DNA of 64,000 bases. Origin: a virus. The translations under genes and the position numbers were made by a program. A model generated the notes under the pieces. That model saw nothing but the letters and a program-made list of their open reading frames with translations, did not search any database and was not told the DNA's origin. Location: positions 64,001 to 128,000 of IMG/VR virus record IMGVR_UViG_3300022213_000237; one strand, 5' to 3'. Positions within the stretch are counted from its first letter, which is position 1. Every line of letters starts with the position of its first letter. This document shows, piece by piece, positions 4,466 to 60,188 of the stretch.

Positions 4466-4710
4466 TATTTGCCTTCTAGGCGATTTGAGCAATACTCTGC
4501 GAGTCGTACTTTAGCTTCATAGGCTTTGACGAAGGCCTTGACGATTTCGTTTTCAAGCTCGTTGAATTGTGGATCTGGAGTCGGGTTTTGTTGCAATAAT
4601 TCCTGCTGAATAAGTTTGTATTTCCTGACGTCTGCCTGGCAGTATGAAAGGTCTCCGGCTTGTTTTCTGACGAGCTTCAAAAAATCTTCTTTGCTCATGG
4701 GTTTTGTCAT
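4465..4710 (-). CDS. Hypothetical phage protein
   Basis: ORF in array. Confidence 0.55.
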   Translation of the reverse strand: MTKPMSKEDFLKLVRKQAGDLSYCQADVRKYKLIQQELLQQNPTPDPQFNELENEIVKAFVKAYEAKVRLAEYCSNRLEGK

Positions 4711-4719
4711 GGTCTAATC

Positions 4720-5238
4720 CTATCGTTTTGATCTTGTGGATACACAAGAAGGTGAGTGGCCTGTAGACATCAAGTCCTTCATGTCGCAGCGGCAGGTATC
4801 GGATGCGGAAGGAGCACTCGCGTTTTTGGATTCTTTGTACTCCATGTAACCTTTGTATTTTATAGGATCTACATCGATATCTGGCAGTTGAAATTTCAGA
4901 GTGTCTTGCCAGTGCTTGAGGTTAAAGTTGCTGATACCGCCATAGACAATGCGACTGATTTCGAATGTGACGTACGGTAAGGATCGATTCGTTAGACCCT
5001 CACGGGAAATTACATCAACCAATTTTCGAGCACAACTCATTGGCACGCTCAAAACGCCTTGGTCCGTCTGGAAGACCGCCAATCTCCCCATGCCGTACGT
5101 GTCGGAGAAATACGATACAATTTCTTTTGACTCCAACAACCGGAACCTCAATTTACCGTCCTTGGGGACGGTGATAACTTTTTGTCCTGATTCTCTTTCG
5201 ATTTTGGCGATAAGCTCTTTGTAAGTTGGCAATGTCAT
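4720..5238 (-). CDS. Hypothetical phage protein
   Basis: Likely start MTLPTYKE after GGAG; ends in CRCDMKDLMSTGHSPSC, a motif also ending ORF 5729-5971 (CSCDIKNLLSTGHDDGC). Confidence 0.6.
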   Translation of the reverse strand: MTLPTYKELIAKIERESGQKVITVPKDGKLRFRLLESKEIVSYFSDTYGMGRLAVFQTDQGVLSVPMSCARKLVDVISREGLTNRSLPYVTFEISRIVYGGISNFNLKHWQDTLKFQLPDIDVDPIKYKGYMEYKESKNASAPSASDTCRCDMKDLMSTGHSPSCVSTRSKR

Positions 5239-55261: not shown

Positions 55262-57355
55262 TTACTCCTGGGAGGTTTCTTCCGGCTCTTCTGAGAGTGG
55301 GGGTGCAACTACTAATATCGCGTCGATCGCAAAAGGTCTGTTGGATTTGTATCGCGTGAGATGCAGTATCGCGATCGACCCAGCCATATCCTTAGGAGCT
55401 TCGAGATGTCCTGATTCTCGATCCGGCCACTTAACGAATAAGAATTGTTCACCATCTACGTCAAAAATTACTTCTACGGCAGATTTAGTTCCACCCTTGT
55501 AGCTGAATCGTCTTTCGGAAATGATATATCCAGCTACCGTGCAGGCAACATGCTGGCCATCATAAATCTCAAATTCTTCGTTATAGTATCTAAGCTGTGC
55601 GCCATCAACCAGCGGCACGGCTTCAAGTTTACGGTCGCTGCCGATACCCATCTGACGCTTCATGTCCGCAATACTTTCTGCAGTACTGGGCAGATACCAA
55701 TAGTTGCCTTTACCGTCGCTAGTGACACCGTCGATCCGCATATCAACCAAAATAGGCACCACGCTGTTGGTGTAAATTGGCAAAATGTTTTTCTGCATCT
55801 GGAATCTAGTCAACGGATTTAAGTCCACGTACTTTTTATCGACTTTACCTTTTTTAGCTTTCTTTCCTGTAAGGGCCTGAGTTACATTCGCCACTTCTTG
55901 TTCGTAATAATCAAGTTTGTCGTTAACGTGTCTCAATTCTGACGGGAAAAGGCTGTCCATAACGCCAGAAACAATTAGCTTGCCGACTACGCCTCTATTT
56001 AGGGCGCTGAGTCCGGCTTTAACTTTTTGCTTACCTTTGGCGTCAAGCATTGGAGTACCGTCTTCGTTTACTCGCAATGTGGCTCCAGCCATCTTTTTGC
56101 GGACTATTTTTTCAACAAAATCGGTGACGCTTAAATATGGGCGACCAGCGCAAAGTTCGGCATGAGCTGTGGGACCAACGCCGTTAATAAAGCTCAAAGG
56201 CGCTCGGATTCTATCGCCCTGGATTTCAAATTCGTCGCCCGAATACCGCACATCCGGTAAGTCGATCCACTGTTTGCAATAACGCCAAAACTTTTCAGCA
56301 ATTTCCTTCTTGTCGGCGTTTTTTAGCACCGCACACCACCACTCGTTGGGGTAGTAATGTTTTAGATAGGCGCAAGCATAGGCGGTGACGGAATAGCAGA
56401 TTGAGTGACTTTTGTTAAAGCCGTATTGTCCAAAGGTGACTATCTGGTTCCAGACCTTCTCCGAGTCTTCTTTACCGATTTTCTCGGAAGCTTTGGCAAT
56501 AAAGTTTGGATACGCTTCCAATACCTTAGCCATCTTCTTCTTCGCAATGTTAGTGCGAAAGGTATTGGCTTCTATGCCAGTGCAACCAGTCAAATGCTGA
56601 TACAACTTCTGTAATTGTTCTTGGTATACAATTACGCCGTAAGTCTCTGGAAGCAGTGCGTCTAGTGCTTTAATTGGATCGGATGGAGGAAGGCCTTTAG
56701 CTCTGTTGGCGTATTCAACCAACATATTATGTTCTCGGCCAGTAATCGGGTCCTTGACCTTAGCATCCAGAGGACCTGGGCGATCTAGAGCCGTGAAGGC
56801 GCTTATTGCTTCAATCGAGTCAATAGCTTTCACACCCGCCGATTTGTCGTAGTTAAATTGAGTCAACCATTGTTTGGCGGAGTTGGTATTGAGCTGGAAT
56901 ACGGTTTCTGTTTTACCTTCGGCAATGTCGTTGAATACGGCTTGGTCTTCGGGAAGGTCCCAAATATCCATTGGCACACCAGTCGTGGGATTGGGTACGA
57001 TACGAAATCCTGGAACTCGGCGACCATTAAGTTTGATATCGGATTCAAAGTCTCGGTCTGGGTATTTTGCTTGAATGAGCTTAATTGCGGCACCGATGTC
57101 CTTCAGGGAATTGAGCCCGAGGAAATCCATTTTCAAACCACCTACGGCCTCAACACTCCCCGCCGTGTATTGGGTGGTACGAAATCCGCTGATAGTGGTC
57201 GTGGGTATGAAATTACTGATGGGCTCATTTGCGATGACAAAGCCGCAATTATGCATTACAACGCCAGAGGCGTGAACGAAACTATGGTGTTCGTGATTAA
57301 CAGATAAATCATATACCTGTTCTGGTTCTTTTATTCGTGCTGATATTATCTTCAT
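55262..57355 (-). CDS. dnaE: DNA polymerase III alpha, C-terminal fragment with N-terminal split-intein IntC
   Basis: MKIISARI..VYDLSV..GVVMHN|CGFVIA; GGLKMDFLGL, TALDRPGPL, TYGVIVYQEQ, YGFNKSHS. Confidence 0.95.
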   Translation of the reverse strand: MKIISARIKEPEQVYDLSVNHEHHSFVHASGVVMHNCGFVIANEPISNFIPTTTISGFRTTQYTAGSVEAVGGLKMDFLGLNSLKDIGAAIKLIQAKYPDRDFESDIKLNGRRVPGFRIVPNPTTGVPMDIWDLPEDQAVFNDIAEGKTETVFQLNTNSAKQWLTQFNYDKSAGVKAIDSIEAISAFTALDRPGPLDAKVKDPITGREHNMLVEYANRAKGLPPSDPIKALDALLPETYGVIVYQEQLQKLYQHLTGCTGIEANTFRTNIAKKKMAKVLEAYPNFIAKASEKIGKEDSEKVWNQIVTFGQYGFNKSHSICYSVTAYACAYLKHYYPNEWWCAVLKNADKKEIAEKFWRYCKQWIDLPDVRYSGDEFEIQGDRIRAPLSFINGVGPTAHAELCAGRPYLSVTDFVEKIVRKKMAGATLRVNEDGTPMLDAKGKQKVKAGLSALNRGVVGKLIVSGVMDSLFPSELRHVNDKLDYYEQEVANVTQALTGKKAKKGKVDKKYVDLNPLTRFQMQKNILPIYTNSVVPILVDMRIDGVTSDGKGNYWYLPSTAESIADMKRQMGIGSDRKLEAVPLVDGAQLRYYNEEFEIYDGQHVACTVAGYIISERRFSYKGGTKSAVEVIFDVDGEQFLFVKWPDRESGHLEAPKDMAGSIAILHLTRYKSNRPFAIDAILVVAPPLSEEPEETSQE
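57248..57355 (-). mobile_element. Split intein C-fragment (36 aa)
   Basis: Block F VYDLSV and block G HN followed by +1 Cys. Confidence 0.92.
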
Positions 57356-58236
57356 GGATCTATCTTACTAAGTAGCTTTCCGATCTCCAACATCACTTCG
57401 TACGATACATATCTTCCACGCATCCAATTACAGCGTAAACAAGACGGTACACAGTTTTTCTTAATGTGACCTATGTCATTGTTTTTACGATCCAGACCGG
57501 TAGCAGGTCTTCCGCAATAACAACAAGGAGAACTGCGAGCCTCTAACACGTCATCCACGGTAAGATCAAAATCCCTTCTTTTGTCTTTATCTCTTCTAAC
57601 GTAAGAGTGAAGAAGTTTTTTAGCTGCCCGAAGAGTGTTTTGAATTGGGGAGTCTTTAAATCTAGTAGACTTTACACATTCTTTACACCAATAATTCTGT
57701 AGACGTATCACTGACCAACGCTGTTTCCAGCGATGGCCTACAGCGCATTCCCAAGTCGAATGGCATGAAGCTTTGTCGGACCATTCAATCAACTTACCTC
57801 CCTTGAGCTTAACGTATTCGATTGCCTCCTTTTTTAGTGGGCGTTGGCGACGAGAACAAATCCTACATGGATTACGCGGCGGTTCAACCGAACGATAACT
57901 TCCTAATATTGTACTTCCACATTGGATATGGGTAAGTTTCAGGTTAGGTTCTGAAACCCCCTTGTAGTCTCCAGGATTTTCTACTCGATACCCCCATGAA
58001 AACAACTGAGATTCTATGAATTCTTTACTGTGCTTGGTTCTACCAGATCCACGCCTAGCTCGAATGCCTTTTGAATTCCCATCCACCCCTCTACGGTAAG
58101 TATTTGGTGGTCTGGAGTACAACATAGCTTTGCTCCATTTTCTAATGTGTATTCCGTTATCGTTCGAACCCCCTGATTTATTAAAAGGGCCGTGGCGTTG
58201 GCGCCTTGTCCTGTATTTATTATTTGTTCGTTGCAT
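57352..58236 (-). CDS. Free-standing HNH homing endonuclease (start uncertain)
   Basis: Zn-ribbon repeats (HIQCG..PCRIC; CAVGHRW..WCKEC); CCYCG..GLDRKNNDIGHIKKNCVPSCLRCNWMR. Confidence 0.85.
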   Translation of the reverse strand: MQRTNNKYRTRRQRHGPFNKSGGSNDNGIHIRKWSKAMLYSRPPNTYRRGVDGNSKGIRARRGSGRTKHSKEFIESQLFSWGYRVENPGDYKGVSEPNLKLTHIQCGSTILGSYRSVEPPRNPCRICSRRQRPLKKEAIEYVKLKGGKLIEWSDKASCHSTWECAVGHRWKQRWSVIRLQNYWCKECVKSTRFKDSPIQNTLRAAKKLLHSYVRRDKDKRRDFDLTVDDVLEARSSPCCYCGRPATGLDRKNNDIGHIKKNCVPSCLRCNWMRGRYVSYEVMLEIGKLLSKIDP

Positions 58237-58295
58237 TCGACAATATCCTTTATTTGTCCGTCAGAAAGTAAGATTGCCTCCCGCGCCGGAAGACA
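58014..58295 (-). mobile_element. Split intein N-fragment (93 aa)
   Basis: Block A CLPAREAILLSDG, block B LCCTPDHQILTVEGW, then stop. Confidence 0.92.
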
Positions 58296-60188
58296 GGCGT
58301 GGCGGCTTTTTTGTCGTGCGATACCCAACATTTTCTTAACGATTTCCCATTCTTGTGGGTATCTCTGAATATACTCCTTAAGCTCCTGAGATTCGTCAAT
58401 CAAACCTCTTATTTCTTTTCCGTCGTCACCCGTGTACCCAAACACAAAATCGGCATCATCAACACCCTGAGGCGGCATCGGAAGCTTTTTGCATAAGACT
58501 TCAATCTCAGCATCTACGTGGCCATGTAGTGAACGATGAACATCTTTGATAGATGACTTGAGACGTAGCATCGTATTCGTTGAAATTGCGGCCACGCAAT
58601 CGGCAAAGCGATTAAACAACCACCCGCGCTCGGGGTCGATAAGGGGGTCTCTATCCGGAAAATCCATGTCAATGTCCGGCAGCTTCCCGTCCTCGATACG
58701 GTCCTTCGTCAGAAAGCGGTCTTCTGAGAGGTCGTACTTGAGTGGGTCGACGTGAGTGACACCAAGATAGTAAACTGCGGATAGGCCGCCTGCGGAGCCA
58801 CGACCCGCACCGCTAAGTAATCGTTGTTGTTCGTAAAAGGAACAAACTTCTTCGGCAATAAACAAGTAAGGCAGGAGATCTATTTTGCCGTTGTGATGTA
58901 ACAGTTCTACTTCTTTCTTTAAACGGGATACGCGTGTCGGATTACCCCAATCCATGCGCCCGTGTTTGTCGAGCAGGATCTTAAAATACTTAAGAGTATT
59001 TGATGGATAGAATGACGCAGGTAAGGATTTGCGATCTGTGAATTTGAAGTCCTTGAAACGCTGACTCCATTCAATATTTGAGTCTACCATGGATTCGAAG
59101 TCGCTCTCCGACATCCCCATCACACCTTTAAAGTAAGACCATGCTTCAGCAGAATCGAACCTGTGATACGAATTTGCGAATTTCCACGAACCACCAGAGC
59201 TTCCGAGACGGGAATCCTGGACAATCTTTTCATCTTTGGTGGCGAAATGCGCATCGTCGGAAAGCAATATTTTATCGCCACGAGTTCTAGCGAGATGCAA
59301 CATGAATCGATTGGCGGCCAACTGAACATCGCCATCAGGACACCAAGGCTGGCATTCATTCTTTAGAAAGTCCTCAACGAGCTTGCACTCGACAATGACT
59401 TTGGGTTCGCGTTCCTCCCATTTACGGTTATTCATTACCGCAACCAACAAGCCAACATCCTTACCCCGTGAAACAGCTTTGGCTAAGTCTTCGGCACTGA
59501 CGCCATCCGAGAATTTAGTGGTCTTAAGCTTTTTCTCTTTCCAGAACTTAAATTTCTCTCCGCCTTCAATAGTAACAAAGACACCATTGACCCAGTATTT
59601 GTCACAAACATGCGGAAATACTTCAACGTAGAACTTGTTTCCAAACATCGACTTGAGACGTTCGTAGTATTTAATGGCAATGTCTGGGCGATCCGAAAGC
59701 AGGTGGCGTTGCACCATGCCGATTAGACATCCGGAAGTAGCGGTAATGTTGTATTGTGAGAGTCTTTCTAGATTTTCCCAAGAGAACAACGGCTTCCTTT
59801 CGGAGCCGTGCTGCTCTGCGCGAGCATCAGCTAAAGAAAGTTCTTTGACTAACGCCTCGTATCCCTTTTGGTCTTGGGCGTGAAGCGTAATGTGGTAGTA
59901 TTTGTTGTAGGAGGCGAAAGTTCCTTTAGCGTCCTTTTCGATACCTGCTGCCTTGAGAATCGGGCAATCATCATCTCTAAAATAGCCCTCGACACCCAAA
60001 ATAGGAATAATGTTGTTCTTTTTGGCAAGGTCGTACACTTCACGACATGCGCCCATAGAACCGTGATCAGTACACGTTGTCACTCCCGTACCAAGCTGTA
60101 TTTCTCTTTCTACAAACGCTTCTGGGGTGGAAGCCGTATCTAATGATTGTTGGTGACAGTGAGGAGTTGGAAAATTCTTAAAAGCCAT
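58014..60188 (-). CDS. dnaE: DNA polymerase III alpha, N-terminal fragment (PHP + palm) with C-terminal IntN
   Basis: HCH..TDHGSM..GVEGY (PHP), GAGRGSAGG, PDIDMDF, RQKSRHA|C. Confidence 0.95.
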   Translation of the reverse strand: MAFKNFPTPHCHQQSLDTASTPEAFVEREIQLGTGVTTCTDHGSMGACREVYDLAKKNNIIPILGVEGYFRDDDCPILKAAGIEKDAKGTFASYNKYYHITLHAQDQKGYEALVKELSLADARAEQHGSERKPLFSWENLERLSQYNITATSGCLIGMVQRHLLSDRPDIAIKYYERLKSMFGNKFYVEVFPHVCDKYWVNGVFVTIEGGEKFKFWKEKKLKTTKFSDGVSAEDLAKAVSRGKDVGLLVAVMNNRKWEEREPKVIVECKLVEDFLKNECQPWCPDGDVQLAANRFMLHLARTRGDKILLSDDAHFATKDEKIVQDSRLGSSGGSWKFANSYHRFDSAEAWSYFKGVMGMSESDFESMVDSNIEWSQRFKDFKFTDRKSLPASFYPSNTLKYFKILLDKHGRMDWGNPTRVSRLKKEVELLHHNGKIDLLPYLFIAEEVCSFYEQQRLLSGAGRGSAGGLSAVYYLGVTHVDPLKYDLSEDRFLTKDRIEDGKLPDIDMDFPDRDPLIDPERGWLFNRFADCVAAISTNTMLRLKSSIKDVHRSLHGHVDAEIEVLCKKLPMPPQGVDDADFVFGYTGDDGKEIRGLIDESQELKEYIQRYPQEWEIVKKMLGIARQKSRHACLPAREAILLSDGQIKDIVECNEQIINTGQGANATALLINQGVRTITEYTLENGAKLCCTPDHQILTVEGWMGIQKAFELGVDLVEPSTVKNS

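Follow-up and report, generated by a model that had tools for sequence, protein, structure and literature searches.

A fractured phage dnaE gene with a split intein and an HNH endonuclease frame that probably begins inside the intein's N-terminal half

The stretch of DNA analysed here, referred to below as the window, comprises 64,000 nucleotides of a virus (bases 64001-128000 of the 169,567-bp IMG/VR virus record IMGVR_UViG_3300022213_000237). On its minus strand lies a dnaE gene, for the alpha subunit of DNA polymerase III (Pol III), that is broken into two open reading frames (ORFs) with a third ORF between them; the three ORFs occupy three different frames (Table 1). In particular, the DnaE N-half ends in an intein-like domain (IntN), the DnaE C-half opens with a second such domain (IntC), and the intervening ORF encodes a putative homing endonuclease of the HNH type. 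The sole phage record with DNA similarity over the dnaE region was that of Myxococcus phage Mx1 (169,621 bp), which is 64.5% identical to the window dnaE at the DNA level and shares with the window the gene order RecA, SSB, dnaE, phosphatase, ribonucleotide reductase (RNR).

Table 1. Features of the dnaE locus in the window.
Feature	Coordinates	Strand	Content and evidence
DnaE N-half ORF	58014-60188	-	724 aa (631-aa extein plus 93-aa IntN)
DnaE N-extein, 631 aa	58296-60188	-	PHP and first part of palm, with two-aspartate motif; collinear with Mx1 DnaE up to RHA
IntN, 93 aa	58017-58295	-	Cys1 codon 58295-58293; block B TPDH; stop codon TAG 58014-58016
Putative internal HNH start	58234-58250	-	AAGGA 58246-58250, 9-nt spacer, ATG 58234-58236
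HNH homing-endonuclease ORF, 294 aa	57352-58236	-	ATG 58236; ORF calling, PHROG, Foldseek, conservation of the -1 frame
Zinc-ribbon-like modules 1 and 2 of the HNH ORF	about 58035-57862; 57834-57664	-	Model; Cys/His pairs
HNH core	57558-57355	-	Model confidence (pLDDT, predicted local distance difference test); Foldseek
ATGA overlap of HNH stop and IntC start	57352-57355	-	Sequence; kept in relatives
DnaE C-half ORF	55262-57355	-	697 aa (36-aa IntC plus 661-aa extein)
IntC, 36 aa	57248-57355	-	Blocks F and G; ends His-Asn; predicted docking on IntN
DnaE C-extein, 661 aa plus stop	55262-57247	-	Cys+1 first; third catalytic Asp motif, fingers, HHH; collinear with Mx1 from the Cys after RHA

In Mx1, DnaE is one uninterrupted protein of 1289 aa that reads RHA/C at the point where the window N-half turns intein-like. 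The continuous RHA/C of Mx1 fixes the extein boundaries in the window exactly and shows Cys+1 to belong to the native extein. The domains of the polymerase are distributed over the two pieces: the N-half matched the Pfam families PHP (4.7e-23) and DNA_pol3_alpha, covering most of the palm (9.7e-27), and the C-half matched DNA_pol3_finger (3.1e-21), HHH_6 (1.7e-8) and the C-terminal end of the palm (6.1e-8). The aspartate motifs are likewise divided in the translations, with PDIDMDF in the N-half and KMDFLGL in the C-half; we take these aspartates to correspond to E. coli D401, D403 and D555. The site at which the cyanobacterial DnaE is split, QYGFNKSH, is uninterrupted in the window C-half. 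An initial annotation, made from the DNA letters, had described this ORF structure, the ATGA overlap, a splice junction that would restore RHA-C, the division of the aspartates, an intact cyanobacterial site (hence a different insertion site) and a Cys1/Cys+1 intein, all of which we found as described in the ORFs, their translations and the alignment with Mx1. Its remark that the class was already known is also correct, since fractured genes, dnaE loci among them, were reported by Dassa et al. in 2009 (PMC2677866). It further described a free-standing HNH ORF that follows IntN. The HNH ORF does lie between the two halves, but instead of simply following IntN it shares the final 223 nt of the N-half ORF, read in the -1 frame.

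The residues on which protein splicing depends are retained throughout the family. All nine IntN sequences have Cys1 and the block B Thr-Pro, and eight of them also retain the block B His; all eight IntC sequences end in His-Asn, and the +1 residue that comes next is Cys in the window and either Cys or Ser in relatives. This conservation stands against an identity between IntN sequences of different lineages of only 42-55%. The solved intein closest to the window IntN was that of Npu DnaE (2keq; phmmer E 1.2e-5), and the alignment stops where Npu is split, the canonical position of endonuclease insertion. A structural model of the IntN-IntC complex scored 0.66 on the interface measure ipSAE (best of three controls, 0.01), passing a benchmark mark that 58 of 80 solved complexes and 2 of 110 mismatched pairs attain; runs of the model had at least 94% of their contacts in common, with a partner pLDDT of at least 74. 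Note that because split-intein structures have already been solved, this pass speaks for likeness and is not proof of binding. Two points count against the assignment, namely that the pass may reflect memory of those solved split inteins and that the Pfam Intein_splicing scores (17.2 and 16.9 bits) fall under the 35.8-bit cut-off. Overall, IntN and IntC have all the splicing residues of a class-1 (HINT) split intein, and the fractured-gene interpretation, at a site other than the cyanobacterial one, is supported.

The polymerase would accordingly be made as two polypeptides that divide the active site between them. IntN (93 aa) and IntC (36 aa) would associate as a class-1 HINT fold and then splice in trans, linking RHA to Cys+1 so that a complete Pol III alpha of about 1292 aa results. 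An alternative is that the intein halves only clasp the polymerase pieces together non-covalently, in the manner of the genes-in-pieces of Aeh1 NrdA. Non-splicing clasps are indeed known (PMC3045599), one relative of the window element (L020) is without the block B His, and two others (L013 and L015) have a second, non-canonical break in dnaE upstream of the intein. However, Cys1, TPDH, His-Asn and Cys+1 are all intact in the window and are conserved across lineages whose IntN sequences have diverged as far as described above, and we consider a clasp without splicing distinctly improbable. (In the L020 IntN, L020:1894-2178, the block B His is replaced by Gln, and in three lineages, L017, L019 and L020, the +1 residue is Ser and not Cys; the chemistry or the efficiency of splicing may vary within the family.)

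The protein encoded between the halves matched PHROG 1035 'endonuclease VII' (2.4e-11) and PHROG 559 'HNH endonuclease' (7e-6). Pfam and NCBIfam searches found no HNH family match for the window protein, which tells against its assignment; a relative, P0021, matched PF01844 with an E value of 0.026, below threshold, and a sequence search of the PDB with the HNH protein gave no meaningful match. In an AlphaFold2 model, pLDDT was 90-96 at residues 201-270, which make up most of a C-terminal HNH core. The best Foldseek match of the model was the HNH restriction enzyme PacI (3ldy; E 6.8e-4, probability 1.0), followed by the Gme HNH nickase, Cas5-HNH, McrA and the Cas9 HNH domain, each with E >0.1. 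Among 12 family members of 33-47% identity, C238, C241, H257, N261, C266, C269 and N270 are invariant, so that the conserved HNH-family columns comprise two CxxC pairs (one of them CxxCN), a Gly-His and two Asn. By the model, then, the predicted fold of the middle ORF product is that of an HNH endonuclease. Upstream of the core the model places two strand-rich modules with Cys/His pairs, which we infer to be zinc-ribbon DNA-binding modules; relatives have from one to three modules of this zinc-ribbon-like type.

The same split was present in independent contigs (P0005-P0008, L011-L023). In particular, a search with the IntN region identified four further DnaE N-halves that end in a homologous IntN, with the C-half gene adjoining in their contigs, and further relatives came from searches that used IntC or an IntN-HNH fusion as query. 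The element occupies the RHA/C site in at least 10 lineages, the window included, and occurs there in four states. In the first, IntN and HNH are fused in frame and the stop codon of the fusion overlaps the start of IntC (P0007/L012, P0008, P0013-P0016, L022 and L023). In the second, IntN has its own stop codon and HNH lies in the -1 frame (the window, L013/L014, L015/L016, L017/L018, L019 and L020); these are referred to below as the separate-HNH lineages. In the third (L011), HNH has been deleted and a remnant is left as a 126-nt spacer (L011:7053-7178), a deletion scar that still encodes the last HNH residues, followed by stop codons. In the fourth (P0041), the beginning of the HNH region has become joined to IntC through an in-frame deletion, giving a re-joined contiguous mini-intein. 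A four-base overlap of HNH stop and IntC start (ATGA, TTGA or GTGA) was found in L013, L015, L017, L019, L020, L022 and L023.

Could the window arrangement be an artefact of assembly or sequencing, that is, two single-base errors in one contiguous HNH-containing intein? The three window ORFs are each offset by one base, as such errors would have it. However, the same offsets occur in at least five other independently assembled lineages, the overlap of stop and start is conserved, and L013/L014, L015/L016 and L017/L018 were each recovered from two different samples. Moreover, a phmmer search of 1.84 billion proteins with the IntN-HNH query returned six proteins that match the entire query, all six of which stop precisely at the C-terminus of HNH; in none of the 15 sequences read among the matches did an intact HNH run on into IntC, and among the best 150 of 3656 HMMER hits the only protein that runs from IntN into IntC was P0041, from which HNH is deleted. 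When a contiguous ancestor was sought among proteins of 1268-3620 aa, the only protein found was one unrelated LAGLIDADG/HINT protein (E 3.9e-6). The recurrence of the split in independent assemblies, for three lineages in two samples each, thus excludes a pair of sequencing errors, which the initial annotation had already called unlikely, and an artefact is scarcely credible. We hold with good confidence that the window dnaE is a genuine fractured gene of an Mx1-like phage of about 170 kb, composed of split-intein halves and an endonuclease gene; this degree of confidence applies to the explanation as a whole, with trans-splicing, an internally started HNH gene and homing included.

Where does translation of the HNH gene begin? 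Directly after the IntN stop codon there is no ATG in the HNH frame; the only candidate there is TTG 58005, which is without a Shine-Dalgarno motif. The HNH frame is open further upstream, back to ATG 58236, which is formed by the GAA/TGC of adjacent Glu and Cys codons of IntN and is preceded by a motif resembling a Shine-Dalgarno sequence (Table 1). This arrangement is conserved. In all six separate-HNH lineages the ATG consists of the last base of one codon followed by the TG of a conserved IntN Cys codon, and in five of the six, as well as in L011, a GGAG or AAGGA lies 8-9 nt upstream of it (L013 has only a weak AAAGA upstream of its internal ATG). Of note, the IntN of L011 keeps the -1 frame, the ATG and the GGAG despite the loss of HNH.

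The -1 frame is also open for longer than expected. In each of the six separate-HNH lineages the N-half has its longest open -1-frame run at its very end, at 72-90 codons, against a typical spacing of stops elsewhere in the N-half of 10-17 codons. When synonymous codons were resampled with each phage's own codon usage, 2.7-5.5 stops were expected in the -1 frame over 70-85 codons in each of these lineages, and none was seen in any of them (P 0.001-0.037 per lineage); the product of the six P values, 2e-14, is overstated because the elements share ancestry. As a control, the three fused lineages for which DNA was available had 12, 1 and 4 stops where 11.5, 0.5 and 2.1 were expected, and these lineages have GTG or TTG at the position of the ATG and no Shine-Dalgarno motif. 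In addition, the codons for a helix of the HNH model (residues 71-80, pLDDT 87) span the IntN stop codon and lie upstream of TTG 58005. Together these findings suggest that HNH translation probably starts at 58236, with about 75 codons coding for two proteins at once.

Several observations weigh against such an internal start, and most of them would be expected of a plain free-standing HNH gene that starts near the IntN stop, at TTG 58005 or at ATG 58125, with the -1 frame upstream of it untranslated. Gene callers placed the start near the junction in four relatives (GTG in L015, TTG in L017 and L019, ATG in L020), usable junction-proximal HNH starts exist in L017 and L020, and the protein P0017 begins at the position equivalent to TTG 58005. 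HNH residues 1-65, which are the part overprinted on IntN, are predicted to be disordered. Furthermore, the Shine-Dalgarno-like motif and the ATG are in part by-products of conserved IntN residues (Lys/Gln-Glu/Asp ... Glu/Lys-Cys), and the shared ancestry of the six elements means that their P values are not fully independent. A junction-proximal start nevertheless leaves without explanation both the absence of -1-frame stops in six lineages, when fused lineages carry stops at the expected rate, and the conservation of the ATG and of its upstream motif; a start at TTG 58005 would also remove the helix at residues 71-80. ATG 58125 has a GGAG 7 nt upstream and was considered as a start in its own right; we gave it a lower rank than ATG 58236 since three lineages (L017, L019 and L020) do not conserve it. 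On balance a free-standing gene with a junction-proximal start appears unlikely.

A further alternative is that ribosomes shift into the -1 frame close to the end of IntN and so produce HNH as an IntN-HNH fusion. Six clusters of relatives do encode IntN-HNH in one frame, and an A-AAG tetranucleotide just before the window IntN stop could slip by -1. No slippery heptamer of the form X-XXY-YYZ is present at the junction in the window or in L013, however, and a shift occurring so late would require neither a -1 frame free of stops over almost the whole of IntN nor conservation of an ATG preceded by a Shine-Dalgarno motif. Frameshifting is thus an improbable source of the nuclease.

With an internal start at ATG 58236, the nuclease gene would be interlocked with both intein halves, because it starts inside IntN and its stop codon overlaps the start of IntC. 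We lean towards the view that this interlock, which has a conserved Shine-Dalgarno motif and ATG within the -1 frame of IntN on one side and an end on the IntC start codon on the other, throttles nuclease expression and hinders clean loss of the nuclease gene, and that the fused, overlapping, deleted and re-joined forms are natural intermediates between contiguous and split inteins. A start within a translated ORF would be expected to keep nuclease expression low, and translation of IntC may be coupled to the HNH stop codon. (Note that gene callers left the HNH region uncalled in L013, at 4556-5000 within a gap of 446 nt, and in the contig of P0005, within a gap of 659 nt, likely because the ORF has no start after the IntN stop.) Endonuclease genes of this kind are probably under-annotated, and the -1-frame overlap explains why annotation pipelines missed these two.

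Relatives with an empty site bear on the mobility of the element. In IMG/VR, searches with back-translated HNH patterns returned only distant C-terminal matches (34-37%), partly in giant-virus bins, and searches with back-translated patterns of the IntN end returned two relatives with an empty site. Such sites are read through continuously, as RHA/C in Mx1 and L010 and as KHA/C in L009. In a tree of C-exteins the window was sister to the empty-site Mx1 (support 100/99), and the fused L012 was sister to the contiguous mini-intein P0041 (support 100/99); because this tree is small (11 rows) and unrooted, it carries no direction of change. The patchy distribution of the element over the tree fits gain and loss by homing and decay and is an indirect sign of homing. 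HNH would cut dnaE alleles that have no intein, the Mx1 allele for example, and during co-infection the entire cassette would be copied in. The related lineages may then represent the life cycle of the element, from fused forms to a separate overlapping ORF, a deleted HNH with a remnant, and a re-fused mini-intein, with no order implied.

Dassa et al. (2009, PMC2677866) described fractured genes as split inteins with a free-standing homing-endonuclease gene between adjacent halves, three of them dnaE loci from ocean metagenomes. The endonucleases were of the GIY-YIG or Vsr-like type, with HNH cases predicted and none seen; their 3' ends overlapped the downstream half by 6-69 bp, hairpins were present in the 5' untranslated region (UTR), and the gp41-7 locus had lost its endonuclease gene. 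The window element has in common with these loci adjacent halves on the same strand, the order IntN, endonuclease gene, IntC, a phage origin, an endonuclease 3' end that overlaps the downstream half (here by the 4-nt ATGA) and a variant without endonuclease (gp41-7 there, L011 here). It differs in its HNH-type nuclease and in an endonuclease ORF that reaches 223 nt back into IntN in the -1 frame. Moreover, in contrast to the hairpins reported for the 5' UTR, an RNA hairpin over the internal Shine-Dalgarno motif and ATG of the window was not significant (z -1.14); because the ORF overlaps IntN, the window HNH has no 5' UTR ahead of it.

An endonuclease in another frame of an intein has been described by Gosselin, Arsenault and Gogarten (bioRxiv 10.1101/2025.01.02.630785), who reported non-canonical actinobacteriophage inteins with an out-of-frame (frame 3) homing endonuclease resembling endonuclease VII. 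As in the window, the endonuclease lies on the same strand in another intein frame (-1 being frame 3), belongs to an endonuclease VII/HNH-type family (PHROG 1035 in the window) and is missed by automatic annotation. Those inteins are contiguous, whereas that of the window is split by stop codons with its halves in separate ORFs, and the window ORF overprints about 80% of the coding sequence of the IntN splicing domain.

The cyanobacterial DnaE split intein (Ssp, Npu) has the same host protein, is also of class 1, is split at the same canonical endonuclease-insertion point and is of similar size (102 + 36 aa, compared to 93 + 36 aa in the window). It is inserted at Tyr/Cys-Phe-Asn-Lys-Ser-His rather than at RHA/C, its halves lie at distant loci whereas those of the window are adjacent with the endonuclease gene still present, and the identity between Npu and the window, as read off the alignment, is only about 30%. 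The nrdA genes-in-pieces of phage Aeh1 with the HNH gene mobE (PMC3045599; cited in PMC2677866) provide a case in which an essential phage replication gene is likewise cut by an HNH-type gene that overlaps the downstream half; no intein is involved there and the halves assemble non-covalently, whereas the window has complete splicing motifs. The window element thus combines a fractured gene with an out-of-frame endonuclease and adds an overlap with the splicing domain. Fractured genes, including dnaE, and out-of-frame intein endonucleases were known already; what appears to be new is an HNH ORF that starts inside IntN in the -1 frame.

The occurrence of one element at one site in four states provides the intermediates proposed by the gene-breaking model of 2009, and the family supplies the HNH nuclease that was predicted at that time. 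The conserved overlap in the -1 frame is testable evidence for a selfish nuclease encoded within the intein's own codons. In addition, the IntN/IntC pairs are candidate orthogonal trans-splicing tags, available in at least eight diverged versions with Cys+1 or Ser+1 and only distantly related to Npu DnaE.

Related dnaE loci had further insertions and breaks. L013 (3700-3920) and L015 (3250-3420) have an additional, upstream break in dnaE, immediately after the two-aspartate motif: about 45-60 aa without a nucleophile extend the end of the first piece, and the next ORF opens with about 14 extra residues followed by a duplicated Gly-Trp. A non-splicing clasp is a possible reading of this second break. 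In P0014 and P0016 the same point is occupied by a contiguous insertion. P0066 and P0130 are middle pieces of dnaE that have the IntC of another split intein first (HN/S or HN/C, at other sites) and the RHA/C-site IntN last, which points to a polymerase in three pieces with two split inteins; the endonuclease-like region fused to IntN in P0130 is a different one and far larger. L010 (3279-8381) encodes a phage DnaE of 1700 aa that is empty at RHA/C and has a contiguous LAGLIDADG intein within the conserved motif Tyr-Gly-Val-Met/.../Tyr-Gln-Glu-Gln. In the contig of P0008, the RNR alpha gene upstream of the split dnaE also carries a LAGLIDADG intein, and inteins seem to accumulate in the replication module of this phage group.

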